DNA from: a virus
Virus record (IMG/VR): IMGVR_UViG_3300011423_000003
DNA length: 47,490 nucleotides
Reading direction: 5' to 3' (one strand)
Made by a program: the position numbers and the translations under genes
Shown here: piece by piece, positions 227 through 46,013 of the stretch
How the letters are laid out: the number at the start of each line of letters is the position of its first letter
How positions within the stretch are numbered: the stretch's first letter is position 1
The notes under the pieces: model-generated
Told to the model about the DNA's origin: nothing
Databases searched by the model: none
Seen by the model: only the letters and a program-made list of their open reading frames with translations

Positions 227-261
227 GATATGGCTGGATAAACGGTTTATGTAACCATCTC
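227..261. repeat. 35-bp palindromic intergenic element, copy 1
   Basis: GATATGGCTGGATAAACGGTTTATGTAACCATCTC. Same family as 13765, 28903, 39909 and 45979. Lies in the non-coding left-end region. Confidence 0.85.
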
Positions 262-390: not shown

Positions 391-413
391 AAAAAAAGGG
401 GGCTCACGCCCCC
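391..413 (-). terminator. Rho-independent terminator (- strand)
   Basis: On the - strand it reads GGGGGC-GTGA-GCCCCC followed by TTTTTTT (+ strand A7 at 391..397, stem 398..403/408..413). Confidence 0.7.
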
Positions 414-1538: not shown

Positions 1539-1994
1539 GTGAGTCTTGTACGGCCTTCGATCGAGCGTCCTATTTGTCGTGTGATACTTGTGTGCGGGCC
1601 TCCGGCTTCAGGTAAATCGACTTACGTCCGAGTCCACGCGAAGACAGGTGACACCGTGATCGACCTCGACGTCATTGCTCAATCGTTCGGACTCAAGAGA
1701 GGATGGCCAAGCACTCACTTCGCCCTCGTCATGAGGGAGTGGGCAAGCCGAATGAAGGCGTTGGCTCAGCTAGGGCCGTTGGATGTGGCTTGGGTTGTGA
1801 TGGGCGCTCCGCTTCGAGAGCAACGGGAGCATTGGGTGAGGGCGCTCGGAGTCAAGTCCAGTGATTTGATTGTGCTCACGGCTACGAGAGAGGAACTCTT
1901 TGAACGGATCAAGGCCGATCCAGAGCGGAGTCGAGTCCGGTCGGAGCAAGTGCTCGCCGTTAGGAACTGGTTCGAGTTGGAGAAGATCGGATGA
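1539..1994 (+). CDS. P-loop NTPase, polynucleotide-kinase-like (AAA_33 / T4 Pnk kinase-domain type)
   Basis: GTG start preceded by GGGGAGGG. Walker A GPPASGKST is followed about 15 aa later by VIDLD, the arrangement seen in the T4 Pnk kinase domain. The stop overlaps the next start (ATGA). Confidence 0.7.
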   Translation: MSLVRPSIERPICRVILVCGPPASGKSTYVRVHAKTGDTVIDLDVIAQSFGLKRGWPSTHFALVMREWASRMKALAQLGPLDVAWVVMGAPLREQREHWVRALGVKSSDLIVLTATREELFERIKADPERSRVRSEQVLAVRNWFELEKIG

Positions 1995-2473
1995 GGGAGG
2001 TTCATCCACATCTCTTCGTCGGGAGCGCCGAGGACTACAAGGCTTGTCGGAGTGAGGCGGGTTGGTCTTTTCTTACCTGCGCGAAGGAGCCGTGGCACCG
2101 GAGTGCGTTGGGTTACGAGGGTCGAAGTGCTCCGAGAGAACACCCGGAGTATCTCATGGCTCGGCGGGGTGATCAGTTGATCCTTAACATGGTTGATGCT
2201 ATCAATGCCGCCTACTTCCATCCAGAGATGATGGATGCCGGAGTGGAGTTCATCGAGGCCGAACTGGAGAAGGGCCGGAACGTCTTGATCCACTGCAATC
2301 AAGGCCACTCTCGAGCCCCAGGAATGGCCTTCTACTTCCTCTGGAAGAAGCGGGGCTTCGGGAAGGGTAAGGTCTTCAGCGATGGCGAATACGAGTTCAA
2401 GCAACACTACCCCAGCTACAATCCGTCGGAGGGGATTAGAGAGTTTATCCGCGTTGAGTGGAGGCGGCCATGA
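1991..2473 (+). CDS. Cys-based phosphatase (HCX5R, dual-specificity/PTP fold)
   Basis: Signature VLIHCNQGHSRAP matches the H-C-X5-R active-site loop. ATGA overlaps with both neighbours. Confidence 0.75.
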   Translation: MREVHPHLFVGSAEDYKACRSEAGWSFLTCAKEPWHRSALGYEGRSAPREHPEYLMARRGDQLILNMVDAINAAYFHPEMMDAGVEFIEAELEKGRNVLIHCNQGHSRAPGMAFYFLWKKRGFGKGKVFSDGEYEFKQHYPSYNPSEGIREFIRVEWRRP

Positions 2474-3087
2474 CACGGATCTTAGGGAGGCCGTCGGCTC
2501 CGGAAGTGGAGACGGACTTCGTTCGAGAACTGAACGAGGCGGATCTGGTTCTCTTGGACGCACCACGCGGAGTCCAGTCAAAACCAATAGCGAAGCTTCG
2601 CGACAGTCATCACGCCCTTGCACGAGCCTTGAGCGCAGGTATGAAGCCTGGCGAAGCGTCGCTGATCACTGGCTACAGTCTCAGCCGAATAAGCGTCCTC
2701 CAGGGCGATCCTAGCTTCAAGGAGTTGCTCGAGTTTTATCGCGGCCATCAGGACACCGCTTATGCGAACCTCCACGACCGAATGGCTACTCTCAGTATGG
2801 ACGCCCTTGAGGAACTCCGTGAGAGACTTGATGACCACCCTGAAGAGTTCACGCCCGGAGCGCTTCTTGAGATGGTTAAAACACTGGCTGATCGAACGGG
2901 GTTCGCGCCCACCACCAAAAGCTTGAACATGAATGTGGACTTGAACTCATTCGCGGATAAGCTTCAAGCGGCGAGGAAACGCGCTGAGCGGCCCCAACAT
3001 AATCAAGCCTTAACAATCGAGGTCAAGCAAGTCCCCGCTCCTACCGACAGCAGCCTGCTTGGCCGCGAGCCGGAGGATCAGAAATGA
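2470..3087 (+). CDS. terS: Putative terminase small subunit (HTH protein upstream of TerL)
   Basis: ATG at 2470 with GGAGG 5 nt upstream and an ATGA overlap with the phosphatase stop. HTH-like segment GEASLITGYSLSRISVL. Positioned directly before terL. Confidence 0.55.
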   Translation: MTRILGRPSAPEVETDFVRELNEADLVLLDAPRGVQSKPIAKLRDSHHALARALSAGMKPGEASLITGYSLSRISVLQGDPSFKELLEFYRGHQDTAYANLHDRMATLSMDALEELRERLDDHPEEFTPGALLEMVKTLADRTGFAPTTKSLNMNVDLNSFADKLQAARKRAERPQHNQALTIEVKQVPAPTDSSLLGREPEDQK

Positions 3088-3141: not shown

Positions 3142-3172
3142 GAGGGCGTCCGCATAACGCCCTCTCTTTTTT
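3142..3172 (+). terminator. Rho-independent terminator
   Basis: Stem GAGGGCG(T)/(A)CGCCCTC with a 7-9-nt loop, followed by TCTTTTTT. Confidence 0.7.
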
Positions 3173-12715: not shown

Positions 12716-13759
12716 ATGCCTGTTATTGGCGCAACTGCCTTGACCCTTGCTGACTGGGCCAAGCGAGTCGACGACAACTACAAGATCGCTACGATCATTG
12801 AGTTGTTGTCACAGACGAATGAGATCTTGGACGATATGCTTTTTGTCCAAGGCAACCTGCCAACAGGTCATCGGACGACAGTCCGTACTGGCTTGCCGGC
12901 TGCAACGTGGCGCTTGCTCAACTACGGTGTCCCAAATGGGAAGAGCACAACGGCACAGATCACTGACTCATGTGGCAACCTCGAAACGTACAGCGTGGTT
13001 GACAAGGATATTGCTGATCTTAACGGTAATACTCCTGAGTTCCGATTCAGTGAGGTGAAGGCCTTTCTCGAAGGCATGAACCAACAGGTGTCGGCGACAG
13101 TGTTCTATGGGAACACCTCAGTGAACCCGGAGCGGTTCATGGGACTGGCCCCGCGTTACAACACTGTCAACATCGCCAACGCCCAGACCGCAGCAAACGT
13201 CATTGACATGACGGGAACTGGTGGCACGAACACTTCGATGTGGATCGTGACTTGGGGTGCAGAGACCATCCACGGTATCTTCCCGAAAGGCAAGATGTCG
13301 GGGCTGCAACACAAGGACATGGGCGAGTGGCCTGTGAACGACGTGAACGGCAACACTTATCAAGCCTATCGTGACCACTTCAAGTGGGAGTGTGGGCTGA
13401 CGGTTCGTGACTGGCGTTTCGCTGTTCGCCTGTGCAACATCGACGTGACGACGCTGAGTGGAGCAACGCCGCCTGATCTGTTGACTGGACTGATCCGCGG
13501 CTTGTATAAGCTGCCGGTCGCTTCAGCGAGGGCCCAGGCGGTTCAGAAGAGTGACTCGCCGTCGGTGAGTGACTCGATGGGTCGGACTGCGATCTACTGC
13601 AACCGGACGCTGCGGACTTGGCTCGACATCCAGGCCGTGAACAAGAAGAATGTCCTGTTGGACATTGCTGAGTACGATGGGAAGGTTTGCACGACGTTCA
13701 GGGGAATACCGATCAAGACCTGTGACGCCATCCTCAACAACGAAGCGAGGGTCGTCTAG
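12716..13759 (+). CDS. Major capsid protein (HK97 fold, BPP-1-like family by recollection)
   Basis: 347 aa. N-terminal pattern LADWAKRVD..KIATIIELLSQTNEILDDMLFVQGNLPTGHRTTVRTGLP, recalled from podoviral MCPs. Strong RBS. Followed by the palindromic element. Confidence 0.82.
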   Translation: MPVIGATALTLADWAKRVDDNYKIATIIELLSQTNEILDDMLFVQGNLPTGHRTTVRTGLPAATWRLLNYGVPNGKSTTAQITDSCGNLETYSVVDKDIADLNGNTPEFRFSEVKAFLEGMNQQVSATVFYGNTSVNPERFMGLAPRYNTVNIANAQTAANVIDMTGTGGTNTSMWIVTWGAETIHGIFPKGKMSGLQHKDMGEWPVNDVNGNTYQAYRDHFKWECGLTVRDWRFAVRLCNIDVTTLSGATPPDLLTGLIRGLYKLPVASARAQAVQKSDSPSVSDSMGRTAIYCNRTLRTWLDIQAVNKKNVLLDIAEYDGKVCTTFRGIPIKTCDAILNNEARVV

Positions 13760-13764: not shown

Positions 13765-13799
13765 GGTATGGTTGGATAAACGGTTTATCTAACCACACC
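13765..13799. repeat. 35-bp palindromic intergenic element, copy 2
   Basis: GGTATGGTTGGATAAACGGTTTATCTAACCACACC, starting 6 nt after the MCP stop codon. Confidence 0.85.
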
Positions 13800-13827
13800 T
13801 AACACTTGACCCAAATGGAGACGAAAG

Positions 13828-28902: not shown

Positions 28903-28937
28903 GAGAGGGTTGGATAAACCATTTATCCAGCCATATC
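28903..28937. repeat. 35-bp palindromic intergenic element, copy 3
   Basis: GAGAGGGTTGGATAAACCATTTATCCAGCCATATC. The inner part TGGATAAA-CCA-TTTATCCA is a perfect 8-bp stem with a 3-nt loop. Starts 2 nt after the stop of the 2034-aa gene. Confidence 0.85.
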
Positions 28938-28948: not shown

Positions 28949-29350
28949 ATGACTCTATCCACTCAATCATCAGCCGCCACTTACTTAGGTAACGGCGCGA
29001 CAACTCAGTGGGCGTTCGACTTCCCAATAATGGACTTGAGTCATCTTCAACTCAAGACCAAAGACGCAACCGGAGCGCTGAACAACATCGCGCCTGCTGA
29101 TTATCAGGTGGTGGGGATAGGCTCTCCGACTGGTGGCTACGTCGCCTATCCCCTTTCGGGCAACCCGGTTCCTCCCGGCTGGCGAGTCCGCGTTCAGCGC
29201 GTAGTCCCCCTTGTTCAACCAGTTGAGATCATCAATCAAGAAGCGTTTTATCCAGAGGTCATCGAAAGTGCTGCTGACTACGGCCGCTTCATTGATCAGC
29301 AGATGACACAGAGACTTATTGATCTCGAAGCGAACGATCTGTGGGTTTAG
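28949..29350 (+). CDS. Tail-fibre N-terminal anchor domain only (T7 gp17 N-terminus-like), 133 aa
   Basis: ATYLGNGATTQWAFDFPIMDLSHLQLK... parallels T7 gp17 (LTYQLDGSNRDFNIPFEYLARKFVVV). Sits at the canonical gp17 position but lacks a shaft or tip. Confidence 0.6.
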   Translation: MTLSTQSSAATYLGNGATTQWAFDFPIMDLSHLQLKTKDATGALNNIAPADYQVVGIGSPTGGYVAYPLSGNPVPPGWRVRVQRVVPLVQPVEIINQEAFYPEVIESAADYGRFIDQQMTQRLIDLEANDLWV

Positions 29351-30540
29351 AAGTCCTGTGGTTTGGGCAAGGGCTTGAATGCTCTGTGTCCACTAGGAGT
29401 GAGGATGTGCTCGACATGACCAGTCCGGACCATGAGCTGCATAAGCTTCTCGACGTTATGAGCAGGGACGCGCTCGCTCAAAAAGAGGGCTACCACACTC
29501 TCCATAACTGGTTGACCCGTCCGCCCATTCATCTTCCAAATAAAGTGCCAACAGTCTTGGAGCGCTTGAGAATCCCCGCCCTTGAGCATGGCCCTAAAGA
29601 TGTCGGGCATCAAAGCCTCGGCCTCGAGCAACCATCCGAGAGCCTCTTGGTAATGCTGGATTTCTATCACCTGCGAAGCACCCCAGGCTACCGCACACAC
29701 CATGCACAACTTCAAGAGGTGAGCGGTACGTCGGGGAATGTAGGAGGCCAGACGGGGATGGTCAGGAGTGGGGGGACCACCGCTGAGAACCCAAGCTACC
29801 AAGGCGGTGGAAGCCTCTTTTGAGAAGATCAGCTCGCCTCGCTGGTCGCCAATCAAGCGGAGATCTTTGATTAAACCAGTTAGCTCGATCTTGGCTGGTG
29901 ACTCAAAAGGATTGCGTGGCTCACTTATTCCACAGTAGACCATAATGTTTCTGGAGATGAAGCCTTGGTCCCAAGCACCCTCAGGCATGAATTTGCCCAA
30001 GTAGGAAGGGGTAGAGCCACACACCAGATTAAAAAAAGGCTTGGCGATGGTGATTGATAGCTCCTTCGTCCGTCTTTTCTCTGAGTAAGGAGTGCCGTCA
30101 TAGATGTCTGTGAGAGTTGACATAAAGGCGTGCTCGTAAGCAGGTAAGAGGACGCCCATCTCGCTGATTGCAGCTGTCAGTGAATTGTAATCTTCATAAG
30201 GTCCAGGACCAAACAATTGCTTTCGCTTCGCACCGTCAAGCTCATCAATGAACGAGGCTCGAGTCAGTGAAGACGAGCCCTTGTGATGTTCTTGAAGAAA
30301 ACCCCACAGCTGATTGATGCGAGCAAGTATGATTGACTTGCCCACTCCTGGTGGTCCGATCAGCATGACGTAAAGGTTTGGGAACAGTGCCGTTCCCCTA
30401 GAGACTACCCATATCTTTCTTTCCATCGCTCCTGCGATCGCTGCTATTCCAGCCCACTTCCTAAAAATGTCTGGCGAGGCTGTTTCAGCGGTCTGTTCAA
30501 CAAATAACTCTATCCAAGATCTCCCACGGCCATTTTCCAC
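29347..30540 (-). CDS. P-loop NTPase, DUF3987-like (putative replicative helicase/primase-associated)
   Basis: Walker A LIGPPGVGKS preceded by FPNLYVM. The overall pattern recalls DUF3987. Its stop overlaps the convergent + strand stop. Confidence 0.6.
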   Translation of the reverse strand: MENGRGRSWIELFVEQTAETASPDIFRKWAGIAAIAGAMERKIWVVSRGTALFPNLYVMLIGPPGVGKSIILARINQLWGFLQEHHKGSSSLTRASFIDELDGAKRKQLFGPGPYEDYNSLTAAISEMGVLLPAYEHAFMSTLTDIYDGTPYSEKRRTKELSITIAKPFFNLVCGSTPSYLGKFMPEGAWDQGFISRNIMVYCGISEPRNPFESPAKIELTGLIKDLRLIGDQRGELIFSKEASTALVAWVLSGGPPTPDHPRLASYIPRRTAHLLKLCMVCAVAWGASQVIEIQHYQEALGWLLEAEALMPDIFRAMLKGGDSQALQDCWHFIWKMNGRTGQPVMESVVALFLSERVPAHNVEKLMQLMVRTGHVEHILTPSGHRAFKPLPKPQDF

Positions 30541-31967
30541 TTTGCGAGTCCTTGAGGGTTTTCATCTGTTTTAGGAGCCCAGTTATAGCCAGTCTTTACC
30601 TCGGCGGGGATTATCAGTGTTCTATCCCCGCGGAGCCTCACAGGGTACTCAAAGAGCTTCATCATCTGCGGTATGACGATTGCTTCATCTTTCTCAGGAT
30701 ACTGAAATAAGAGTGAATCATGGACTTGCAACAGCAACTGTACTTTGTTAGCGCGCCATATGTTCAGCATAATTCGATTGAGTATTTCGACGGACACGGA
30801 CTGAGGCTCGAAGGCGACCGCTTCGCGGAGCGTTGACTGATCATTCCGCCTCCCAAAGAACCATCTTCGCATACCGAGCATCGTCGTCAGCTGACCCTTC
30901 ATCTTGAGTTCGTCTTCGACCCACTGATGCCACCTCTGGATCGCAATGAATTTCGTGAAGTACGCCGCCTGGAAGTCCTTGATAACTTTGACTGGCATCT
31001 GGGAGTGAAATGCCATCGTTGAAGCCTGTCCCATGTAGTTACTGCCGTGTCCGAGACGCTTTGCCATATACCGGAGCGAGTGCTGACGATAATGTGGCCG
31101 CTCGGCGATGTCTCGATCCTTATGACGATCCCCTGTCCATCCGAGAGCTGGCATAATGCCCTTAGCAACCTCGGTATGGAGATCTCCTGACTCACACGCA
31201 TCCAAGTACGCTCCATCTCCGAAGAGGTTCCAACAAATCGCGCCGACGACTCTTGACTCAGCTTGCTCTAGGTCGATGTTCCCAAGCTTCATTCCGGGGT
31301 CAGCGATGAAGATTCTTCTGAGGCCTTCTTCAATATTTTGTAAGTTTGTTCCAGTCTCGAGGTCAGCCATTGAGCTGGAGAAGCGACCAGTTTCTGTTCC
31401 GGCAATGTTGAAGCTGGTACGCATTCGCTTGTCAGCGTCAATCCGAGTCTTAAGTACACCGATCTTTTTCTGTATCTCTCGGAGAAGAAGAATGTGGTTG
31501 ACCAGCGGTTGGGCGACGAAGTAGTTCGTGAGCTTTTCAAGTGCGCCGCGATTGACTGTCGGAACCATCTCACCAGACGTTCCTCGTCTGCGGATAGGGG
31601 GTATACAGAGTACGCCATAGAACAGCTCCATCAGTTGCTTCGGCGAAGACCATTTGCAAGTCGTTCCTATGCCTACTTCGAGGATAACGTCGAGTTGGTC
31701 ACTCAAGCGTTTAACCCGCTTCTCATAGTCGATGATGAGGCGGTCACGCTCAGTTATGTCAACCAAGACACCACGAAGGTTCATCTCCAGCACAGGTGCT
31801 TGCAACGCGAAGCGAAGATTATACGTCTCTCGAGTTACGTCATCAAGCTGCTCCTGTAGGATCGAGCTGATCTCATGAGTGACACAACAGTCGAGTCCGT
31901 TGTAGACCCACTGTTTTTCCATCTCTCCCATATGAGGGGAAATGTGTTCAGTCTGAACGATTTTCAT
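30510..31967 (-). CDS. Family A DNA polymerase, polymerase domain only
   Basis: TETGRFSS...NLQNI; motif A DLEQAESRV; motif B RYMAKRLGHGSNYMG; motif C QVHDSLLF. Confidence 0.88.
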   Translation of the reverse strand: MKIVQTEHISPHMGEMEKQWVYNGLDCCVTHEISSILQEQLDDVTRETYNLRFALQAPVLEMNLRGVLVDITERDRLIIDYEKRVKRLSDQLDVILEVGIGTTCKWSSPKQLMELFYGVLCIPPIRRRGTSGEMVPTVNRGALEKLTNYFVAQPLVNHILLLREIQKKIGVLKTRIDADKRMRTSFNIAGTETGRFSSSMADLETGTNLQNIEEGLRRIFIADPGMKLGNIDLEQAESRVVGAICWNLFGDGAYLDACESGDLHTEVAKGIMPALGWTGDRHKDRDIAERPHYRQHSLRYMAKRLGHGSNYMGQASTMAFHSQMPVKVIKDFQAAYFTKFIAIQRWHQWVEDELKMKGQLTTMLGMRRWFFGRRNDQSTLREAVAFEPQSVSVEILNRIMLNIWRANKVQLLLQVHDSLLFQYPEKDEAIVIPQMMKLFEYPVRLRGDRTLIIPAEVKTGYNWAPKTDENPQGLAKWKMAVGDLG

Positions 31968-32214
31968 TTCCTATCTCCACATACATCTTGTCAAAGTCAT
32001 TTTTGCTGATAGCATGAGGTATTCCGTTGTAGCCACACAAGATCCAATCACCCTTAAAGACGGTACGAGTTGATCCATAAGAGGTTCGAAGGACTGTTGA
32101 GTTTGGATAGACGACAGCCCACTCGAACTCGATGGCACGCTTGAACCAATCAGGTTGTGGGTCACGGCCGAGCTGGAACGCATCGACCTCAAGCTGTCGG
32201 GGGCGGAACTTCAC
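31948..32214 (-). CDS. Hypothetical protein (88 aa) between the pol and exo genes
   Basis: ORF with overlapping start/stop junctions on both sides. Confidence 0.6.
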   Translation of the reverse strand: MKFRPRQLEVDAFQLGRDPQPDWFKRAIEFEWAVVYPNSTVLRTSYGSTRTVFKGDWILCGYNGIPHAISKNDFDKMYVEIGNENRSD

Positions 32215-32495
32215 AGGCCTAACTCCTCAAGGTCGATTGGTTGACGAAGTGGCTTCGCCACCTTCTCTCGCGACTTCTGCTTTTGGATGTAGTCAGGCCA
32301 AGCAATAACATCTGGTGGATCAGGGAGTTGATACCCGTGCATTATCTCACCAAGAGGCTTCTGCCAATAAGGATAAGCTCGCCATCCTATTGAGGTGATG
32401 AACCAAGGGCCAGGGTCACTCTCAGTCCCATCCATCGACTCAGCTATGTCGTAGGTCGGCTTGCCACGAACGAGATGTGCAATCAAGTAGATCAT
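32211..32495 (-). CDS. Hypothetical protein (94 aa)
   Basis: ORF translationally coupled to both neighbours. Confidence 0.6.
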   Translation of the reverse strand: MIYLIAHLVRGKPTYDIAESMDGTESDPGPWFITSIGWRAYPYWQKPLGEIMHGYQLPDPPDVIAWPDYIQKQKSREKVAKPLRQPIDLEELGL

Positions 32496-32740
32496 TTCTC
32501 CACCATTTCCGCCGCCTCGATCAGCGCAGCTTGCAGCCGCTTGTTCTCTGCGCGCAACTCTTCGTATCGCTCTTTAATCACAAGCACACGCACTCCGGCT
32601 ACTGTGAGATCGTCGGCCATCTTTGCGACAAGTGCGTTCAGCCGCTCGATCTCGTTGGCGGCCTCTTGCATGAGTTTCGCCCATTTGGCAATTTCATAGT
32701 CGGGAGCCATGCGGTGCAGCCGTTCAACGATGTCGGTCAT
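32492..32740 (-). CDS. Hypothetical coiled-coil protein (82 aa)
   Basis: Heptad-rich sequence with coupled junctions. Confidence 0.6.
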   Translation of the reverse strand: MTDIVERLHRMAPDYEIAKWAKLMQEAANEIERLNALVAKMADDLTVAGVRVLVIKERYEELRAENKRLQAALIEAAEMVEK

Positions 32741-33759
32741 TTCTCCCTCTTCTCCAGTATCTTATCGCTTTGTCTCATCAGCTTCCATGACGCTTCGTTC
32801 GTATACACTGAACCAAGAAAGCCAAGACCTTTCCGAGACTCCGGCTGAAGCGCATGATGGAGGAGCATGGTGTCTGTAGTGTAATTGGTTGGAGTTGCTC
32901 CGAGCTTTCTCCACAGAAAGTGGATGTCGAAGATACCGTTATGCGCTGTCTTCTGTGCGGGCAAGTGTAGAATGTTCTTGACCCACTGCCAAGCTTGCAC
33001 TTCGTCTCCGGGACTCCAGTAACTCCATCCATTCTTTCTGTAATCGACGAAAGGGATGCAAACAGCGATCTTTTCAGAAGGCGCGAAGCCGATGCAGGTG
33101 ATCTCGTTAAACGCCGTCTCAATGTCAAAGGCGATCTCCTTCGCCCCTTGTAAGTAAGTCCGATAAAATAGAGCTATGTCTTGGAGGCTTTCGACGATCC
33201 AGACTTCTCTCTTAGGTCGTCTAACTTCTGGGAAACGGGACTCTCGTCGGGCTTTGATGAAGTCTGCGACAACGGTTGGACGGAGTTCCCATTGTCTGAG
33301 TACAGCTGCTGGGTGAAAGGTTGGGAGGACTTTTTGTCCGAGGCCATTTCCTTGGGTTGAAAAGGGTGCCTCCTGAATGGTTCCTCTGAACTTTGAGATT
33401 CCGGTGGCGTTGAGAAGGAACCACGCGGCAGTGTTTCCGAGGGCCAGAACGAGATTTGGTTTAACGCTCCGCAACTCCCGCAGCACACGGTCAAGTTCAG
33501 GTGCATAGTCGGCTTTGATGCTCTTCCCTTTACTGATGGGGCCGTAGCCGTTGACGCTAGGAGTCCCGCAAAGGTTTTCAATGTTATTCTCCTTTGGTCT
33601 GAGGTTGAAGACGTTTGAGAGGTAACAATCACGACGACTGATACCGGCCTCGTCGAGCATTCTCGTCAGCTCATAACCGCTTGGTCCGACGAAGGGGGCA
33701 CGAGCACGCTCTTCATGCTCACCCCACGCCTCTCCAAGTATAAAGATTTCACCATACAT
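32737..33759 (-). CDS. Family-4 UDG-like domain fused to a DnaQ-type 3'-5' exonuclease domain (exo half of the split DNA polymerase)
   Basis: UDG-like ILGEAWGEHEE...PFVGPSG...FHPAAVLR. Exo I FDIET, Exo II HNGIFD, Exo III YTTDT. Confidence 0.8.
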   Translation of the reverse strand: MYGEIFILGEAWGEHEERARAPFVGPSGYELTRMLDEAGISRRDCYLSNVFNLRPKENNIENLCGTPSVNGYGPISKGKSIKADYAPELDRVLRELRSVKPNLVLALGNTAAWFLLNATGISKFRGTIQEAPFSTQGNGLGQKVLPTFHPAAVLRQWELRPTVVADFIKARRESRFPEVRRPKREVWIVESLQDIALFYRTYLQGAKEIAFDIETAFNEITCIGFAPSEKIAVCIPFVDYRKNGWSYWSPGDEVQAWQWVKNILHLPAQKTAHNGIFDIHFLWRKLGATPTNYTTDTMLLHHALQPESRKGLGFLGSVYTNEASWKLMRQSDKILEKREK

Positions 33760-34169
33760 CAGTTCACCGCTCCAGTAAACTCGTGTCTCATCATCTCCTC
33801 GTCAGCGAGGAACTGAGTGACATGCTCCATCGACGCGAACCGCTCAAAGCAACAGACAACTGAGCCGATTGTTGGCAAGTCACCAACGAAGATAACTCGC
33901 TTACCCATAGCGAACGCAACGCCCGCTTCGAAGCAAGAGCCACGCATGGAGTCGCCGGGCTGGACGAACAAGATCAGTACATCACACAAGAGAACGTCCT
34001 TGATGTTGTTGTCCCAAGACTCTTTGACGACTTGAGCTGATGCCTTTGGTTCACCATCTTTCAAAAAGTCAATCCAAGTCGAAACGATCGCCACTCTCGG
34101 ATACAGTTTCTCACGCAACGCTATCCAACGCCGAGCGTACTTGATGTCGGAGGCGATGTAGACTCTCAT
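33759..34169 (-). CDS. Nucleoside 2-deoxyribosyltransferase-like / DUF4406-like protein
   Basis: MRVYIAS... and ...RGSCFEAGVAFAMGKRVIFVG match the (GT)xxExGxAxAxGKxV pattern of the NDT superfamily. Confidence 0.45.
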   Translation of the reverse strand: MRVYIASDIKYARRWIALREKLYPRVAIVSTWIDFLKDGEPKASAQVVKESWDNNIKDVLLCDVLILFVQPGDSMRGSCFEAGVAFAMGKRVIFVGDLPTIGSVVCCFERFASMEHVTQFLADEEMMRHEFTGAVN

Positions 34170-35416
34170 TCCATTGTGTCCTCTGTTAGGGCCTTGTTAG
34201 CATCACGCGCGAACTGTTCGTTAATCTCGAGGCCCATGATCCGAGTGGCTCCCAAGCGTTTTGCTGCGCGGAGGGCTGAACCGGAACCAGCTGTGGGGTC
34301 GAGCATTGAGGTGTGGCCGTCAACGAGCATCTTGAAGAAGTGGGTCAGCATCGTGACTGGCTTCTCACTCATGTGTCGATCACTGACCGTCGATGCAGAG
34401 AAAAGGTTCGAAGCGATCTTGACTATTGGGTGGTCACCTCGAGAACAGAAGAAGGCCGTCTCGTACACTCGGCGAGCCATATGCTGTGGACGTGGAGCGT
34501 TGCCAGCGTTATCCGACTTGTGCCAGATCAATGGATAAGCATCGACGAAGAACTCGCTCGAGAGGAGATCGTAGGTCTCTTGATAGTGAGTCATCGAAAA
34601 CCAGAAGACCATATGTCCGCTGTCACTCATTATGAGATCGAGATTACCTAAGAGACAACGGATTAGCTGGATGTAGTTCTCTTTGGTATCTTCGTAGTCT
34701 CCGTGAACGTGGCCTCCAACGAAAGCGCTGCCGAACTTGTGAGCGTTGATCCCGTAAGGAAAGTCACAGTGAATAAAGTTGAACAATGGCCCGCGGTAGT
34801 CAGGAGCCCACTTTAGAAAGCTCGTATTCAGGATCGCATCTTTCGGTCGATCCGGCTCAACAAGGTCCATCACTTTGTCTAACTCAGCGGCGGCCTTTCG
34901 CTCAGCCACTCGCCTTGTCATGTTCACCGCTGTAGTGTAGCGAGGCGCAGCGTGGATCATCGACTTCGGGTCCGCAAGTTCCTTGGCAACAGTGATTCGG
35001 GCAGAGGCTTCCGGCTGAGTAAGGCCCAACGCTTCTGCCGTGTCTTCAAGCGTCCATTTTTCTTCTTCACCAGCACGGAGTCTATGATACTCTTGGACCG
35101 CTTTGCACTCATCTTGCCACGGCAGTTCCTTGCGTTTGACATTTTCCTCAAGCTCTATTGCATGGAGCAGATAAGCATCGCACTCGTCTTGATACTGGAT
35201 GGTGACATGGCTCCAGCCAAGCATCTTCACTGCTGTTAAGCGTCGCTCACCAGAGACGAGAACCAAGTCTCTTGTAACGACGAGTGGATGGATCAAGCCG
35301 AGTCGGCTGATTGAGTCGGCGAGAACTTCAACATCCTCGAGATCGCTCCGTTGGCGCTCATCGCGGTTGACTATGATTTCTGAAGTGGAGACGGACTGGA
35401 ATTGGGCTGAGGTCAT
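34166..35416 (-). CDS. ParB-like nuclease domain fused to a beta-class N6A/N4C DNA methyltransferase
   Basis: N-terminal ParB box LIHPLVV...GERRL. Motif IV variant CDFPYG lies before motif I LDPTAGSGSALRAAKRLG, and the IV-then-I order is that of the beta class. Confidence 0.8.
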   Translation of the reverse strand: MTSAQFQSVSTSEIIVNRDERQRSDLEDVEVLADSISRLGLIHPLVVTRDLVLVSGERRLTAVKMLGWSHVTIQYQDECDAYLLHAIELEENVKRKELPWQDECKAVQEYHRLRAGEEEKWTLEDTAEALGLTQPEASARITVAKELADPKSMIHAAPRYTTAVNMTRRVAERKAAAELDKVMDLVEPDRPKDAILNTSFLKWAPDYRGPLFNFIHCDFPYGINAHKFGSAFVGGHVHGDYEDTKENYIQLIRCLLGNLDLIMSDSGHMVFWFSMTHYQETYDLLSSEFFVDAYPLIWHKSDNAGNAPRPQHMARRVYETAFFCSRGDHPIVKIASNLFSASTVSDRHMSEKPVTMLTHFFKMLVDGHTSMLDPTAGSGSALRAAKRLGATRIMGLEINEQFARDANKALTEDTME

Positions 35417-35437
35417 TTGGCTCTCCTGTGAGGAAGG

Positions 35438-35469
35438 CCGGAGCCAAATGCAAGACCTGCTGGCTCCGG
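35438..35469 (-). terminator. 9-bp-stem hairpin downstream of the PEP-CTERM gene (no U-tract)
   Basis: CCGGAGCCA-N14-TGGCTCCGG, located between the stop at 35479 and the next start at 35416. Confidence 0.3.
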
Positions 35470-35478
35470 CCGACTTAG

Positions 35479-36243
35479 TTAAGCTAAACGCGCTTTACGC
35501 CTACGATGCAACGCTACAAGACCGCCGATACCTGCGATCAGCAGAGGAAACCCCGAGCCGACAGCAGGAAGTGGAACTGCCGCCACTTGCGGGATGAGGA
35601 AGAAGCTATCAGGTCCATCATTAGCATTGGTGATACGCGCGAAGAACATAACCTGATCCCCAGCACTGACGCCAGCCAAAGAGAGTCCATTGATCGTGTA
35701 GTCAGGAAAGCCAGTCCCGTTGTTCAGTGGAGTGATGTCGTACCCTCCCGGTGGTCTGAACACCGCGAGAACTGTGTGGGTGGAGAGGTTAAGGAACCAA
35801 AAACTCTCCAGAATCTGAGCATCGCCGCCATTCTGGTTGCTGTCCACTCCGATACTGAAGCCATTAAAGCCGCCGATAGCTGCGAGCAGTGGAGAGTTGA
35901 GGCCGAGGGTGTAGCCGGTAGTCCCGGCAAACTGGTCGAGAGCGAGGCCAGACCCACCACCTCCTGGGACAACAGCCGTCGAAAAGTAGCTGACGGTATT
36001 TTGTGCTCCGTTGTTGTGGAAGTCGTTGTAGCCGAAGCCGGAAGGTTGCTGCGGCTGAGTTGCACCGCAGATGATGCAAGGCAAGTTGGTGACTTGCTGA
36101 CCAGGAGCGGTTGGAGTGATCGTTAGATTAGCTGCTCCGTCCGTGATCCAAGGAGTCGGATCAAGGCCGAGGTTTACTGTAGTAGCTTGTGCGCCGCTGA
36201 CTAAGGCGCAAAACACTGTAGTAGCCAGCAAAAGCTTTCGCAT
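35479..36243 (-). CDS. Secreted protein with PEP-CTERM-class (VPLPA variant) C-terminal sorting signal
   Basis: Signal peptide MRKLLLATTVFCALVSGAQA. C-terminus VPLPAVGSGFPLLIAGIGGLVALHRRRKARLA (motif, TM helix, Arg cluster). Own RBS GGAGAC. Flanked by 62-63-bp gaps containing hairpins. Confidence 0.75.
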   Translation of the reverse strand: MRKLLLATTVFCALVSGAQATTVNLGLDPTPWITDGAANLTITPTAPGQQVTNLPCIICGATQPQQPSGFGYNDFHNNGAQNTVSYFSTAVVPGGGGSGLALDQFAGTTGYTLGLNSPLLAAIGGFNGFSIGVDSNQNGGDAQILESFWFLNLSTHTVLAVFRPPGGYDITPLNNGTGFPDYTINGLSLAGVSAGDQVMFFARITNANDGPDSFFLIPQVAAVPLPAVGSGFPLLIAGIGGLVALHRRRKARLA

Positions 36244-36266
36244 AGGCTTAGTCTCCTCTGGGTGGG

Positions 36267-36293
36267 AAAAAGAGGCAGGGGCTGGTGAGCCCC
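36267..36293 (-). terminator. Possible intrinsic terminator after the DUF669-like gene
   Basis: On the - strand it reads GGGGCT-CACC-AGCCCC followed by TGCCTCTTTTTCCC. Confidence 0.4.
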
Positions 36294-36306
36294 CACCTCC
36301 TACTAA

Positions 36307-36747
36307 TCAAACCTTGGCGGTCTGACTAATTTCGCTGTAAACAACCGAGCCGTCCTTTGCGGGGCGGTGACGGATAGTGATGATGACTTGACGGCCTGGT
36401 GCCTCGTTAATGAGCTGAGACAACCGCTTCGCCCCGCCTTCATCGTCGATCCCGAGATCATCGACCAAGAACTTCTTGGCCCTCCACAGCGAGTCCTCAG
36501 TCAAGAACACTCTGTGACGGATTGACTTGCCGTTGATCCCACCGGCCTCCATCAAGGCCAGCTTATCCACATCTTCTCTCTCACTCAAAAAGCGGAGAGT
36601 AAAGTCCACGCATTGAGTCTGATTCTCTCCCACCTTCTCGAACTTCGGAAGGCCCTCAACAAGTGCGACGTAGCTGCCGACTGGATAAGGCTTCGGTCGA
36701 TCAATCTCACTCATAGGCTTGTTCAAGATGTCTTGAAAGTCTGTCAT
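36307..36747 (-). CDS. DUF669-like protein (putative ssDNA-binding partner of Sak4)
   Basis: 146 aa. Sits next to the AAA_24 ATPase, as is typical for DUF669. The pattern PVGSYVALVEG...FTLRF recalls that family. Confidence 0.45.
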   Translation of the reverse strand: MTDFQDILNKPMSEIDRPKPYPVGSYVALVEGLPKFEKVGENQTQCVDFTLRFLSEREDVDKLALMEAGGINGKSIRHRVFLTEDSLWRAKKFLVDDLGIDDEGGAKRLSQLINEAPGRQVIITIRHRPAKDGSVVYSEISQTAKV

Positions 36748-36758
36748 TTGTTGATCCT

Positions 36759-37568
36759 CTATTTTGCAAGTTTCACTACGTTGGAAGCACCCTGGACGGT
36801 TCGGAAGAACGTGACCAGGGCTTGGTCGATCGGAAGCGTCTCAGCCAACTCGAACGAGGCCGGGTTCTTCAGGTCGATCAAGGGGGTGGAGACAGTCCTC
36901 ATCGAACGCTTGATGGACTGTCCGGAGCCAGACGACTCGACTAAGGCAACCGAGTTGAAGTAAGGTGCGATCTTGGGGGAGAGCGCCTGACCTACTGCGA
37001 TCGGAAAGCCTTTCGTCGTGCCGTCTGGCCGATTGAGAAAGGTCATGTGAGCAATGACGATTACGTTGGGCTTGAATGACTCAGCCGTCAACATGGCTAA
37101 GGTGTGCTCGATGGACTCTTGAGCGGAGTAGAAGATGGCTCGCTTATCTTTTGCTCCGGGGTTGAGGAAGTGGGCGTAGTTGAAGGCTGCTTGAGAAAAG
37201 AAAGTAAGAGAGTCAATGACGAGAACCGTATCGGTCGGCCACTGACTCGGTTTACCCAACTCTCCCCACTTATCGAGTAGCTGCATTGCTGTGATAAAAG
37301 CTTTTGGTGCTCCGTCGAGCACAACCCCAGCGCCAGAACCCTTGTACTGGTCGCGGAGTGTTTCAAACGAGACATTCTGAGCCTTATCAGGGCATCTTCG
37401 ACGGACTTGTGAGACAAGGGAGTCGAGCCCGTTGTCGAAGTCGAGGATGCGGAGCTTGTATCCGGCTTCGACGAGGGAAGCGAGAGAGGAGGTTTTTCCT
37501 GCACCGGAATCTCCAATCATTAAGAGCTTGGTTGTTGTTGTGCTGACGTGCTTGTCAAGGCTGGGCAT
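36759..37568 (-). CDS. AAA_24 / Sak4-like RecA-fold ATPase (recombination)
   Basis: Walker A MIGDSGAGKTS, then ILDFDNG, then Walker B VLVIDSLT. RBS GAGAGGA. Confidence 0.7.
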   Translation of the reverse strand: MPSLDKHVSTTTTKLLMIGDSGAGKTSSLASLVEAGYKLRILDFDNGLDSLVSQVRRRCPDKAQNVSFETLRDQYKGSGAGVVLDGAPKAFITAMQLLDKWGELGKPSQWPTDTVLVIDSLTFFSQAAFNYAHFLNPGAKDKRAIFYSAQESIEHTLAMLTAESFKPNVIVIAHMTFLNRPDGTTKGFPIAVGQALSPKIAPYFNSVALVESSGSGQSIKRSMRTVSTPLIDLKNPASFELAETLPIDQALVTFFRTVQGASNVVKLAK

Positions 37569-37764
37569 ATTTTCCTCTCTTTATGTATATCATTGCTATT
37601 CGTACTCGACGACCGAAAGTTCGTATTCTGTTCATTGCTGCTGTCTCACTCCCACCACAGCGGCCGGCAATTGCTCTTAACGACAGCCCTTCCGCTCGTA
37701 GAAGCCAAGCGTGTTCTTTCATAGCCATCTCATATGGTGGCCTCTCATTAGGAGGCCTAAGCAT
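37555..37764 (-). CDS. Small HTH protein (69 aa)
   Basis: ATG 37764 with GAGGGGG 6 nt upstream and an 8-nt overlap with the upstream stop. HTH-like EGLSLRAIAGRCGGSETAAMNRI. Confidence 0.5.
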   Translation of the reverse strand: MLRPPNERPPYEMAMKEHAWLLRAEGLSLRAIAGRCGGSETAAMNRIRTFGRRVRIAMIYIKRGKYAQP

Positions 37765-38647
37765 TCTTAGCCCCCTCACTTGGGTTCCATCTCCTCTTCT
37801 CGAAGTCGCTGTTCAAGAAGGTCTCACGAACGCTTGGGTCTTTACTACAGATCCGCTTGTAGTTGCACAGCATACAGGCCTTGTCGTTCATAGGCCAGTA
37901 GTTTTTCTCGACATATCCGTAGGATCGCTCAATCCAGGAGATGGTGTCTCGTGTCCACTCTTTGAGCTGATCATCTGTACGATATGTGATAGCTCGATCA
38001 AAACGAGTGAATCCGACGGCGATCTGAGCGGCATCAATGATAACACCTCGGACGGGAGTATCATACGCAATCCGTCCTGCAAGTGTGTAAAGGGACATTT
38101 GATTGTCTGGCTCAAACCGATCGAAGTAGTTTGATCCGAGTGTGGCTCCGGTTGTTTTTCTGTCCATAATATACGGAGCGTCAAGAAATGTGACAAGTCT
38201 GTCGAGGTGTCCGGCAAGGGTGATCTCCTTCGTTAGCTCAAAGTGGAAGGTCAGTTCGACGGCTGGGAGGCCATCACTCAAGATCATCGTCTGCGCTGTG
38301 TCCGCTTGAAAGTGGTCAAGATACCAAACAACAGAGCGAACGAGGGTCTCTCGGTTCTTCGCGGTGTCGTCACTTTCCCACTCCCAAGTAATCTTCATCA
38401 GCCATCGGAGAGTGTCGCGGAGGGCGACTGTGTGATCAGCGCCCTTCGCTCTTTCCAAGTCGTAGAGTTCAAGTGATTTGTGGTAGTAAGAGCCGAAGAT
38501 CAAGTGATAGCTTTTGTGCTTGCTGTTCCAGCCCTCGATCATGCAGTAGTAGTATTTGCGGGGGCATTCCTTGAGCCAGCCGAGGGATGTCGAGTCCCAT
38601 GTTTGCTGGACTTGTGTTCCTGTGAAAAAGGCTTCTGGTTTGTTCAT
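37757..38647 (-). CDS. PD-(D/E)XK nuclease, Cas4/RecB-like with 4-Cys cluster
   Basis: GHLDRLV...YIMDRKT (D...DxK), QMSLY (QxxxY), and Cys pattern C(PRKYY)...CMLCNYKRIC (C...CxxCx5C). Confidence 0.75.
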   Translation of the reverse strand: MNKPEAFFTGTQVQQTWDSTSLGWLKECPRKYYYCMIEGWNSKHKSYHLIFGSYYHKSLELYDLERAKGADHTVALRDTLRWLMKITWEWESDDTAKNRETLVRSVVWYLDHFQADTAQTMILSDGLPAVELTFHFELTKEITLAGHLDRLVTFLDAPYIMDRKTTGATLGSNYFDRFEPDNQMSLYTLAGRIAYDTPVRGVIIDAAQIAVGFTRFDRAITYRTDDQLKEWTRDTISWIERSYGYVEKNYWPMNDKACMLCNYKRICSKDPSVRETFLNSDFEKRRWNPSEGAKNA

Positions 38648-38793
38648 GCTACCTCCTCGATTACACGAACGACTTGGAGCAATTTCAATGATGCTCTGTG
38701 TTCATTGGCCCAGGCTTGTGTGTCGAAGCTGATCGGCTTGACAAACAGCAAGTACTTTGCTCTGTCTGAGTGAACGAGAATGATTGCTTTCAT
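38644..38793 (-). CDS. Small hypothetical protein, 49 aa; absent from the ORF track
   Basis: Translated by hand: MKAIILVHSDRAKYLLFVKPISFDTQAWANEHRASLKLLQVVRVIEEVA. ATGA overlaps at both ends fill an otherwise 142-bp gap. Confidence 0.5.
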   Translation of the reverse strand: MKAIILVHSDRAKYLLFVKPISFDTQAWANEHRASLKLLQVVRVIEEVA

Positions 38794-38981
38794 AGACCAA
38801 GCTCATCCAAGTTGATGTTTGTTACTTTCTCTTTGGTTGCTTTCTTCTTCATGGTTCCAGCTGTCTTTGCGCCAAGCATAAATTGTGCTCGAAGGGATTG
38901 AAGGTGCTTCACGATTGCGTCGAGATCTTGATCGGTGAGTGACTCAGGATCACGAGAAAAGAGTTCGCTGATGTCGGTCAT
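38790..38981 (-). CDS. Hypothetical protein (63 aa)
   Basis: ORF coupled to both neighbours. Confidence 0.55.
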   Translation of the reverse strand: MTDISELFSRDPESLTDQDLDAIVKHLQSLRAQFMLGAKTAGTMKKKATKEKVTNINLDELGL

Positions 38982-39166
38982 GCTGCTTCCTCTTCTTTGA
39001 TGCGGGTTGTTGCTTTCGAGTGAATGTCTTTTAAGTGTGAATGGACGAGAACGCGGATCACTTTCGAAGCGCCGAGTCGTGGGTAGAGGGACTGGAGCTG
39101 TTGAAAGTCCCCATCATAAAGGTTTAAGGTGACCTTCATTAAGGGAAAGTCCTCACGTCGCTTCAT
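38978..39166 (-). CDS. Ribbon-helix-helix-like small protein
   Basis: ATG 39166 (alternative 39139). KVTLNLYDGDFQQLQSL...SKVIRVLVHSHL resembles the Arc/CopG beta-alpha-alpha pattern. Confidence 0.5.
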   Translation of the reverse strand: MKRREDFPLMKVTLNLYDGDFQQLQSLYPRLGASKVIRVLVHSHLKDIHSKATTRIKEEEAA

Positions 39167-39359
39167 CTTCTGCGCCTTTCTTGACGATCCAAAGCTGAGA
39201 TGGATCAAGAGGACTCGAAACCAAGCTTAGACAATCCAACTTGGGATCGGCTAGCTTGGCCCGAGTCGAGTAAAACCGAGCCTTCGCCCGTCCAGGGTCG
39301 TCTGTTTGAAAGACAATCCCGAACGGGCTATGCAAGGCGTTATAAAGAAGGGCGATCAA
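39153..39359 (-). CDS. Hypothetical protein (68 aa), TTG start
   Basis: TTGA overlap with the upstream stop. GAGAAGG lies upstream. No internal Met. Confidence 0.45.
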   Translation of the reverse strand: MIALLYNALHSPFGIVFQTDDPGRAKARFYSTRAKLADPKLDCLSLVSSPLDPSQLWIVKKGAEDEAT

Positions 39360-39877
39360 GCCGCCTTCTCTTCAGTCGGCGCGGACAGGTTGTCCAGAAC
39401 GTCGGCCAGTGACTCCTGGGCGATCTTCTGGGCCTCCTGAACCCGGCGGGTAGCGGCAGTGCGGTAGGCGTTGCCCTTGTCTGAGGCGAGCAAGCGAACG
39501 GCGGCGTCAGCAATGTCGCTGGCGTCGGCCTTCCTCTGCATCTCCTTCAGCTTGGCGCGGATCGAGTCTTTAGCCATACGGAAGGCCTCTGCCTCGATCG
39601 GATCTGCCGGGGCACGAGTTCCGCCACGGCGAACGCCGAACTTGTAGTCTTTCGCATACTCGTCGAACTCTTCCTGAAGCTTGGTCAGTGCTGCTTCGGG
39701 GAGATCGTCGCCGTGCTCGGCTTTGTAGTCCTTCACAGTGGAAGCGAAGTTGTTGCGAAGGTTCTCGTGGAAGGTCTGGTTAAGAACTCCCGCTTCGTCG
39801 GCGGTCAGCTGATGACCGGCTTCGTATGGAGAGTGGACAGCAAAGTCGAGGCCTTGGATCGTGATTGACTCTCGCAT
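39356..39877 (-). CDS. Hypothetical GC-rich protein (173 aa), probably highly expressed
   Basis: Strong RBS AAGGGAGA. Has its own promoter and a palindromic element in the leader. G/C-rich third positions. Confidence 0.75.
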   Translation of the reverse strand: MRESITIQGLDFAVHSPYEAGHQLTADEAGVLNQTFHENLRNNFASTVKDYKAEHGDDLPEAALTKLQEEFDEYAKDYKFGVRRGGTRAPADPIEAEAFRMAKDSIRAKLKEMQRKADASDIADAAVRLLASDKGNAYRTAATRRVQEAQKIAQESLADVLDNLSAPTEEKAA

Positions 39878-39908
39878 TGGAATCTCCCTTGTTTGCGAGT
39901 TTTAGTGA

Positions 39909-39939
39909 GGTATGGATAAATCGTTTATGTAGCCATACC
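39909..39939. repeat. Palindromic intergenic element, copy 4 (31 bp; left arm 3-4 nt shorter)
   Basis: GGTATGGATAAATCGTTTATGTAGCCATACC. The right flank GAGTGAACGATAC is shared, in inverted orientation, with copy 5. Confidence 0.85.
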
Positions 39940-39953
39940 GAGTGAACGATACC

Positions 39954-39982
39954 ATTGAACCACACCTGATATGGTTTGTCAA
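39954..39982 (-). promoter_or_regulatory. Sigma70-like promoter (extended -10)
   Basis: On the - strand: TTGACA, 17-nt spacer ending in TGG, then TTCAAT. The transcript would begin just upstream of palindrome copy 4. Confidence 0.4.
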
Positions 39983-40000
39983 CCGTTATTTCACAGTTCT

Positions 40001-45453: not shown

Positions 45454-45454
45454 C

Positions 45455-45927: not shown

Positions 45928-45956
45928 ATGGTATCACATAAAAAGACTACTGTCAA
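45928..45956 (-). promoter_or_regulatory. Sigma70-like promoter
   Basis: On the - strand: TTGACA, 17 nt, TACCAT. The leader begins with the hairpin CCGACTC-GAA-GAGTCGG (45904..45920). Confidence 0.5.
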
Positions 45957-45978: not shown

Positions 45979-46013
45979 GGTATGGCTAGATAAACGGTTT
46001 ATGAAGCCATATC
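45979..46013. repeat. 35-bp palindromic intergenic element, copy 5
   Basis: GGTATGGCTAGATAAACGGTTTATGAAGCCATATC. Overlaps the stop codon of the 52-aa ORF and lies 22 nt upstream (on the - strand) of the -35 box. Confidence 0.85.

Follow-up and report, generated by a model that had tools for sequence, protein, structure and literature searches.

Results

Organisation of the genome

The window analysed here is the whole 47,490-nt stretch of IMG/VR record IMGVR_UViG_3300011423_000003, and it comprises a complete genome of 47,367 bp followed by an exact 123-bp terminal repeat that ends in a run of 23 adenines (A23). Plus-strand genes occupy positions 1539-29350 and minus-strand genes positions 29347-47352, with two further small minus-strand genes within 404-1107. 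The source is an uncultured soil phage with structural genes that resemble those of epsilon15/BPP-1-type podophages (Table 1), and proteins of 1187 and 2034 aa, neither with a polymerase match, lie at the positions of T7 gp15 and gp16. Searches of the large proteins against Pfam, PHROGs and PDB sequences revealed no RNA polymerase domain, no phage RNA polymerase, integrase or transposase was found among the genome ORFs searched, and the genome has no tRNA genes. The genome has several promoters of the TTGACA-17-TATAAT type as well as several GC-rich hairpins of the ordinary kind, followed by T tracts, which indicates that transcription signals of the host type are in use, and the U tract of the terminator at 391..413 likewise indicates that the host uses terminators of this kind. 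The nearest cultured phages are very distant, with ~65% nucleotide identity over part of the capsid gene.

Table 1. Positions of the genes, element copies and transcription signals considered in this study (positions are those of the 47,490-nt window).
Feature	Position	Strand	Remarks
Large terminase, portal, Bbp16-like protein, tail tube proteins		+	structural genes
Major capsid protein	12716-13759	+	structural gene
T7 gp14-like protein, then 1187-aa and 2034-aa proteins			structural region
DUF3987 primase-helicase; split family A polymerase with UDG-exonuclease part		-	minus-strand region
ParB_N-methyltransferase fusion		-	minus-strand region
Sak4; PD-(D/E)XK exonuclease; UvrD-like helicase		-	minus-strand region
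HTH_3 protein	43326-43604		early region
Weak HTH	37555-37779		early region
Early promoter	47324-47352
Element copy 1	227..261	-	transcribed (minus) strand reads GAGATGGTTACATAAACCGTTTATCCAGCCATATC; 47.2 bits
Element copy 2	13765..13799	+	45.2 bits
3' tail, example	13800..13807	+	TAACACTT, after copy 2
Element copy 3	28903..28937	+	44.1 bits
Element copy 4	39909..39939	-	31-nt variant; 27.6-29.9 bits
Arm-like heptamer	39947..39953	-	GGTATCG, 7 nt upstream of copy 4
Promoter-like site	39954..39982	-	TTGACA-17-TTCAAT with TG extension; read from sequence, unlisted by promoter scan
Sigma-70-type promoter	45928..45956	-	TTGACA-17-TACCAT with TG extension; directly downstream of copy 5
Mirror-image arm	45966-45971		GTATCG, beside copy 5
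Element copy 5	45979..46013	-	49.6 bits
Canonical intrinsic terminator	391..413	-	GGGGGC-GTGA-GCCCCC + T7, at stop of Rmf-like gene
Canonical hairpin	3142-3164	+
Canonical hairpin	near 36250	-

Five copies of a palindromic element

The genome holds exactly five copies of a 35-base palindrome that can form a hairpin, and re-checking in the genome confirmed the coordinates and sequences that the earlier note had given for them. When up to two mismatches were permitted, the core GATAAACNNTTTAT gave 13 strand-hits where 1.7 were expected and none of 100 shuffled sequences reached 13, so that the motif is far commoner in the genome than in shuffles. A covariance model was built from 23 family members and the genome was scanned with filters off; the five copies scored 27.6-49.6 bits and the next best site 15.4 bits (E = 0.12). 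By a rough gene map only 1,806 nt of the genome (3.8%) are non-coding, and the scan of coding and non-coding DNA confined all five copies to this share, for which the probability by chance, on the same rough map, is ~1e-7. The view that the element is found only between genes held in this respect, but copy 5 shares sequence with the final five codons of a putative 52-aa ORF (45999-46157, minus strand), which is kept in the relative L178. Read in the direction of local transcription, every copy, copy 1 included, is situated 3' of a gene.

Copy 1 is not upstream of the plus-strand genes: it is located downstream of two minus-strand genes, 637-1107 and 404-580, and ahead of both the terminal repeat and the early promoter, and the canonical terminator at the Rmf-like gene sits 140 nt upstream of it. 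As described previously, copy 2 begins 6 nt past the stop codon of the major capsid gene (5 nt intervening) and copy 3 begins 2 nt past that of the 2034-aa gene (1 nt intervening), with 28 nt from copy 2 to the start of the Bbp16-like gene and 11 nt from copy 3 to the start of a 133-aa ORF for a tailspike N-domain. Copy 4 has been shortened to 31 nt by a 4-nt deletion in one arm. Gene 40001-40333 lies on one side of it, and on the other, 31 nt downstream, is the ATG of the 173-aa gene 39356-39877. The second hexamer of the promoter-like site ends 14 nt upstream of copy 4, and the position of this site beside the copy is conserved in L175, L176 and L179; however, its function is doubtful and it may be non-functional, because in three of four lineages the -10 hexamer lacks A at position 2. 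Copy 5 is followed after 22 nt by its sigma-70-type promoter. The additional arm-like sequences beside copies 4 and 5 came to light with an inverted repeat, I2, of 37 nt and 89% complementarity.

Conservation in related phages

Relatives were gathered from viral and metagenome contigs using searches anchored on the capsid, the 173-aa protein and the helicase, with about 600 capsid relatives and about 20 kb covered per relative. The searches gave four close lineages, namely A (that of the window), B (L175, L004), C (L176, L160, L005, L006) and D (L179, L180), of which B and C are sisters, and many distant relatives besides, with the element carriers coming from soil and sediment metagenomes. 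The element is found at the same five sites throughout lineages A-D, and sites 1-5 are orthologous wherever the region is covered, although the flanking genes of these lineages are only ~77-82% identical at the nucleotide level. Orthologues of copy 1 were detected in L178, L131, L175 and L160, an orthologue of copy 3 in L176 (16910-16944), full-length (35-nt) orthologues of copy 4 in L175, L176, L179 and L180, and orthologues of copy 5 in L178, L186, L175, L176 and L179, where a TTGACA promoter follows every one. Relatives whose capsid is at least 89% identical have copy 2, whereas those with ~70% identity lack it, and in the latter the next ribosome-binding site comes directly after the capsid stop codon. 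We also observed that copy 1 of L131 is similar to copy 2 of the window, with the similarity extending over 17 nt of flank, but has the opposite orientation.

In distant relatives, whose helicase identity is 35-57%, the outer arms are retained as TATGG(C/T)T ... A(R)CCATA, and in all convincing members but one 21 nt separate TATGG from CCATA (a 31-nt span). Within 1.18 Mb of helicase-anchored loci TATGG-N21-CCATA occurs 15 times where ~1 occurrence is expected, and versions with N20 or N22 were not seen there. By contrast, at least eight different inner arms were seen among the distant relatives, all still complementary and capped by loops of 3-9 nt. Examples are GTATTAC/GTAATAC in L185, CGGGG/CCCCG in L195 (on the same contig as L274) and GGCAAA/TTTGCC in L196, the single member with a 20-nt interior, while L252 has a perfect 14-bp stem and further versions occur in L281, L238, L263, L272, L242, L249, L194 and L063. 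Three copies in L283 carry outer arms of the T type described below that are one base shorter (ATTGCCC...GCAAT). Judging from these alignments, the element is an old feature of a large uncultured clade, with a conserved base, a free-form cap and a near-constant length.

Rfam searches at gathering thresholds, and with E relaxed to 5, gave no match and none was found in cultured phages; the element therefore belongs to no RNA family described in Rfam and is absent from cultured phages. Likewise, 185,579 bacterial and archaeal genomes did not contain it and yielded only 15 single, chance-like matches in AT-rich genomes, on which grounds we rejected a host REP, a CRISPR repeat and a prophage origin. 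A solitary CRISPR repeat acting as an RNA anti-CRISPR, an idea taken from PMC10651486, was also set aside, there being no Rfam match, CRISPR-DR families included, and no arrays of the motif in the genomes. A literature search on the element returned generic matches only, and there is no literature on this phage group because the closest cultured helicase is only ~31% identical at the protein level.

Pairing of the arms

As a single strand the element folds into a 7-bp basal helix, a small internal loop, an apical helix and a short loop, and covariation agrees with the two stems and internal loop that had been proposed. The basal helix reads G-R-TATGG / CCATA-Y-C and exists in two interchangeable versions, TATGG/CCATA (G-type) or TATTG/CAATA (T-type), while the sequence of the apical helix is specific to each lineage; the 4 nt between the arms vary and are often mismatched in the alignment of copies, as noted before. 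In the 23-sequence alignment 12 of the 16 pairs have changed on both sides, so the arms covary by the test for compensatory substitution. Here 82.8% of cells are paired compared with 72.3% in shuffles, none of 500 column shuffles reaches the observed values, and the paired fraction also exceeds that of all slid registers.

Pair 6/30 is the most telling in this regard: it is G-C in 17 and T-A in six of the 23 aligned copies, with none mixed. Lineage B has T-A at this pair at all sites seen, whereas lineage C has the G-type at sites 1 and 2 and the T-type at sites 3-5, again with none mixed, and scans that permitted mixed arms gave no convincing mixed element. In L004 the capsid stop codon has replaced the conserved left arm, yet a hairpin forms again in a different register. 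Since mixed half-sites are missing even where both types share a genome, and since the hairpin of L004 has been re-formed, we conclude from these comparisons that intrastrand pairing is under selection. If half-sites were read independently on duplex DNA then mixed sites would be expected, and none appear.

The palindrome stops at the limits of the 35-mer, which gives stems of at most 16 bp. Pairing between the flanks averages -4.3 kcal/mol, compared with -3.75 kcal/mol in shuffles and -4.1 kcal/mol for non-cognate flank pairs, and with flank pairing this marginal we rejected an extended lower stem (AGT...ACT) that would give a duplex of RNase III length.

Sequence conservation and recognition

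Conservation of the sequence itself had been taken to argue for a specific recognition element, and this was strengthened by the relatives: ATAAA/TTTAT is invariant in all 21 distinct copies from lineages A-D while positions 8-11 beside it drift, and the central base of the palindrome is C or G in every one. Positions 2/34, 8/28 and 17/19 vary as independent R or Y choices in each arm. All copies within a genome have a common apical sequence and the basal helix is conserved across the family, as is, in the transcribed orientation, a 3' tail with C at +23 and T at +24 from the dyad (0.8-1.1 bits). Short CT...ACT motifs also flank many copies, without consistent target-site duplications. Such conservation probably calls for a sequence-specific partner or, less likely, reflects concerted evolution among the copies. 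No candidate hairpin-binding protein was identified in the phage genome; an HTH_3 protein and a weak HTH protein are encoded and nothing ties either of them to the element.

Several other resemblances did not survive comparison. Those to a DnaA box, a Fur box, IHF, sigma-54 and sigma-32 sites were, by eye, not kept across lineages, and a mini-ORF of the form ATG-N6-TAA in copies 1, 2, 4 and 5 is lost in lineages B and C through a change of ATG to ATT. The tail of copy 4, CCTCACTAAA, matches the T3 promoter core, and a promoter for a phage RNA polymerase was rejected here as no such polymerase was found in the proteins searched. GANTC methylation sites in the flanks are not general. GANTC is avoided genome-wide.

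Transcriptional context and strand of action

We scored context in the direction of local transcription on 33 non-redundant family members. An open frame of at least 50 codons ends between -16 and +13 nt from the start of the element in 19 of these, and in 12 a promoter of the TTGACA/TTGCAA type that points the same way and has a proper -10 hexamer lies 8-40 nt downstream, compared with a background of 0.8% (0.3 of 33 expected) and with 0/33 on the opposite side of the element. Distances from element to promoter range continuously from 10 to 39 nt and we therefore dropped the idea of helical phasing; its absence fits a terminator placed ahead of a promoter rather than an activator site. The remaining members have a ribosome-binding site and start codon 11-31 nt downstream, and one distant copy directly follows the last gene of a replication operon. 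Judged by location, this context of stop codons and promoters is that of a terminator or insulator.

Folding of the sense strand was less clear-cut. Hairpins of the window copies are weak and variable (-6.5 to -16 kcal/mol), and the minimum-energy structure of copy 1 is not the palindromic hairpin. On the sense strand there are 29 A.C mismatches versus 14 G.U pairs, and of 28 informative cases 17 have the more stable fold on the antisense RNA, whereas a sense-RNA helix under selection should show the reverse. The wobble test thus weakens the reading as a sense RNA and does not favour it, with most of its cells at helix edges or in the internal loop and a sense strand that is G-poor nearby.

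A U tract follows the stem in none of the five window copies, as the earlier note had said, and in few relatives. This, together with the AT-rich apex of five A-U pairs and the sense energies above, rules out a canonical intrinsic terminator, again in agreement with that note; of the properties of such terminators the element has the 3'-end position and lacks both the U run and a stable GC-rich hairpin.

Discussion

The element most likely marks transcript ends through a dedicated factor, as judged from its position, pairing and conservation. Our leading explanation, which we put forward tentatively, is that it may be a boundary hairpin specific to this phage family, read by a factor and acting on transcripts as a terminator, an insulator or a former of 3' ends. 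Once transcribed, it would serve as a non-canonical, factor-assisted hairpin of this kind, and read-through would be blocked or reduced at such points as the end of the capsid gene and the junctions of early operons. A dedicated protein would recognise the conserved basal helix together with the short 3' tail, and this protein is probably encoded by the phage because the element sequence changes lineage by lineage; site and protein would then co-evolve between the G-type and T-type basal helix and among the lineage-specific apical stems. Among the roles listed in the earlier note, that of a factor-dependent terminator best fits the stop-codon and promoter context (19/33 and 12/33). Copy 2, after the major capsid gene, occupies a usual place for an attenuator. 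A broader proposition, that this clade of uncultured soil podophages has a boundary-signal class of its own, with a protein-dependent terminator or insulator hairpin that needs no U tract and whose site and protein co-evolve, we rate as rather doubtful.

Among known signals, intrinsic terminators, T7 T-phi and other capsid-gene attenuators among them, share with the element a hairpin at the 3' end that often precedes a promoter, with one copy after the capsid gene, whereas the element differs in having no U tract, an AT-rich apex, a weak sense energy and a conserved sequence, and ordinary GC-rich terminators with T tracts serve other boundaries of the same genome. The lambdoid nut site, composed of boxA and boxB, is also a lineage-specific hairpin with a short linear motif that is read by a phage protein; unlike nut, the element has a conserved basal helix, a tail 3' of the hairpin, and five copies that lie at the ends of units and not at their starts.

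Several observations count against a boundary hairpin. The U tract is absent and the sense hairpins are weak and variable, and copy 1, located 140 nt past a strong terminator, may be little transcribed. Copy 4 lies just downstream of the promoter-like site in lineages A-D, which is awkward for a constitutive terminator, and the arm-like heptamers beside copies 4 and 5 cannot belong to the hairpin. These GGTATCG arms, the position of copy 1, the central C or G and the near-constant length would all be easier to understand on duplex DNA.

The main rival is accordingly a binding site on duplex DNA for a dimeric or oligomeric phage protein, which would act as a roadblock or repressor at operon boundaries and early promoters, and we consider it possible though not probable. 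Strict dyad-symmetric conservation about a central C or G, and an arm spacing that stays nearly constant over deep divergence (N = 21 in 15 of 15 occurrences), are what an operator would show. The sense strand has no preference for G.U, positions 2/34, 8/28 and 17/19 vary independently between the arms, and the concerted change across the copies of a lineage points to a co-evolving trans factor. Furthermore, at copies 4 and 5 the extra arms lie between the element and the adjacent promoter, and the HTH_3 and weak HTH proteins of the early region at 29.3-47.4 kb would be available as binders. However, an operator should tolerate mixed half-sites and none exist at pair 6/30, even where G-type and T-type share one genome. 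Inner self-complementarity is kept while sequence, stem length and loop size change, unlike the fixed geometry of a dimer, the distance to the promoter is not fixed, and the outer arms, ~26 bp apart centre to centre (~2.5 turns), would by sequence lie on opposite faces of B-DNA. A simple double-stranded operator, one of the suggestions of the earlier note, is therefore weakened, as it leaves both the missing mixed half-sites and the variable inner stem-loop unexplained. The dispersed conserved inverted repeats of the Streptomyces phage phiC31, mycobacteriophage stoperators and the C1 operators of P1 are comparable as dispersed intergenic sites that change by lineage, but those sites are read on double-stranded DNA in temperate phages, whereas here no integrase was seen, complementarity between the arms is required and the interior is a stem-loop of free form. 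The suggestion of a centromere or partition site found no support, as no ParA was found and the ParB_N domain is fused to a methyltransferase.

A processing site of the RNase III type, similar to the R sites of T7, would be cut between cistrons, so that these are separated and the upstream message ends in a protective hairpin. Like those of the T7 group, the element is present as several related copies in a genome; the copies are intercistronic, on both transcription arms here, consist of two helices with an internal loop and are a feature of a phage lineage, and copy 2 follows the capsid gene. We nevertheless regard this as improbable: a T7-type site needs a coaxial duplex of ~20 bp, whereas pairing here ends at 16 bp or less with no robust lower stem and only a marginal extension into the flanks, and the element is a near-perfect palindrome of conserved sequence. 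A host enzyme of loose sequence preference does not account for such strict, lineage-specific conservation, and there is no match in Rfam.

The element could also act as a hairpin or cruciform of single-stranded DNA, as a priming or replication signal, a recombination site like attC or a hairpin promoter of the N4 type. Pairing is real, the sequence is conserved and nothing favours the sense RNA, with G.T pairs falling on the template strand. Integron attC sites have conserved outer boxes and a variable but structured interior, and they directly follow ORFs as the elements do, while the phage encodes Sak4, an exonuclease, a UvrD-like helicase and a DUF3987 primase-helicase. Against this, no tyrosine or serine recombinase was found among the phage ORFs scanned, although a host Xer could take that part, imperfect palindromes extrude poorly as cruciforms, and the close association with co-directional promoters, on the downstream side alone, speaks for transcription. 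An N4-type promoter was rejected specifically, since no single-subunit RNA polymerase was found in the large proteins. These single-stranded roles appear distinctly improbable.

Least probable of all is a selfish mobile hairpin, similar to REP/RAYT or derived from IS200/IS605, that survives only in intergenic DNA: the element is extragenic and palindromic, its 35 nt have conserved ends around a variable interior, its presence at the capsid site differs among relatives, and the resemblance of the L131 copy and the CT...ACT motifs could be read as traces of movement, but the genome showed neither a transposase nor an HUH protein, the bacterial and archaeal genomes contain no copies, there are no consistent target-site duplications, and the five sites are stable over four lineages with the core under purifying selection while its neighbours drift. 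REP and REPIN sequences, for which roles in mRNA stability and termination have been proposed, are similar extragenic imperfect palindromes of ~35 nt at gene 3' ends with a conserved end and a variable stem; in contrast, the element belongs to a phage lineage and not to bacterial chromosomes, has only five, positionally stable copies, ends in G-R-TATGG / CCATA-Y-C in place of a GTAG or CGTC tag, and has no RAYT gene.

The finding is real and the family is larger than the earlier note could see. Phages that depend on the host polymerase must split long operons and set gene dosage, for example for a high yield of capsid, and they are known to do so by means of U-tract terminators, Rho, RNase III sites or repressor roadblocks. 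If our reading of the element as a boundary hairpin is true, it would add a further, factor-dependent way to end or insulate transcripts and, being compact and portable, would be of use as a part in synthetic biology. In this abundant group of soil phages, operon boundaries can in practice be annotated by TATGG-N21-CCATA with an interior that is complementary to itself, and the same definition of the family can be used in the search for the co-evolving factor.

Element-related sequence at the arm junction and in relatives

The plus-strand and minus-strand arms converge where the stop codon of a 133-aa ORF overlaps that of the convergent primase gene (29347-30540, minus), and because of this overlap there is no terminator between them. 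In the distant relative L185, a member of the element family lies exactly at the junction of the tailspike-N ORF and the primase gene. The element is followed in some distant relatives by long tracts that are pyrimidine-rich and G-poor, e.g. TCTCTTTTCTCTCAATTCTCTCATTTTTTT, and these could be Rho-utilisation-like sequence. The contigs L241 and L194 carry the arm words of the element in swapped order, giving the palindromes CGATACC...GGTATCG, CATACC...GGTATG and CCATACC...GGTATGG, which none of the models so far accounts for.

Positions of features in the window and, where a contig is named, in viral or metagenome relatives
Feature	Position	Strand	Remark
RMF (ribosome-modulation-factor)-like ORF, 58 aa	within 391-580	minus	weak Pfam RMF match
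Promoter	1489-1517	plus	inside divergent control region
Canonical terminator	3142-3164		between first plus-strand genes and large terminase
133-aa ORF	28949-29350	plus	tailspike N-terminal domain only
Polymerase part, family A DNA polymerase	30510-31967	minus	
UDG + 3'-5' exonuclease part, family A polymerase	32737-33759	minus	
ParB_N-N6/N4 methyltransferase fusion	34166-35416		phage-encoded
HTH_3 protein, HigA-like, 92 aa	within 43326-43930	minus	
Pyrimidine-rich tracts	L274 6288-6330; L238 1631-1665; L249 4488-4520		
Swapped-arm palindromes	L241 6427-6453; L241 18405-18434; L194 5201-5231		

Genome ends and flanking repeats

Positions 1-123 of the window are identical to 47368-47490, forming an exact 123-bp repeat with A23 at its end, and a G8 run follows shortly afterwards, near 140. 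Either the terminal repeat is genuine or the assembly overlapped itself there and broke at the homopolymer. Positions 4-20 (GAGATGGTTGTTGGAT) are similar to one element arm. Further inward, the RMF-like ORF (391-580, minus) ends in a strong intrinsic terminator whose loop contains the ORF's stop codon, and between this terminator and copy 1 of the element CTCAGAGAGGCTGCG occurs as two direct repeats (about 262-330). In L175, of close lineage B, a related GC hairpin, GAGGCTGCGTGAGCCTC, abuts that contig's copy 1.

Gene content and the divergent control region

Three small ORFs without a family match separate the UDG-exonuclease and polymerase parts of the family A DNA polymerase, which is split (30510-33759, minus). 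The HigA-like protein is preceded by a 109-aa ORF, likewise without a family match (43326-43930, minus), with which it may form a toxin-antitoxin-like or regulator pair. Across the whole window GANTC is strongly avoided, with 177 occurrences vs 277 +/- 16 in shuffles. The plus-strand operon opens with an AAA_33 kinase and a dual-specificity-phosphatase-like protein (1539-3087), the next gene encoding a 209-aa protein without a family match, and this set may be a polynucleotide end-repair module. Upstream, the divergent control region (1108-1540) contains several copies of the motifs TAGGACTCG, GACTCGAG and AGTCCTA, which look like iterons or operators, and this region may be an origin or a hub of regulation.
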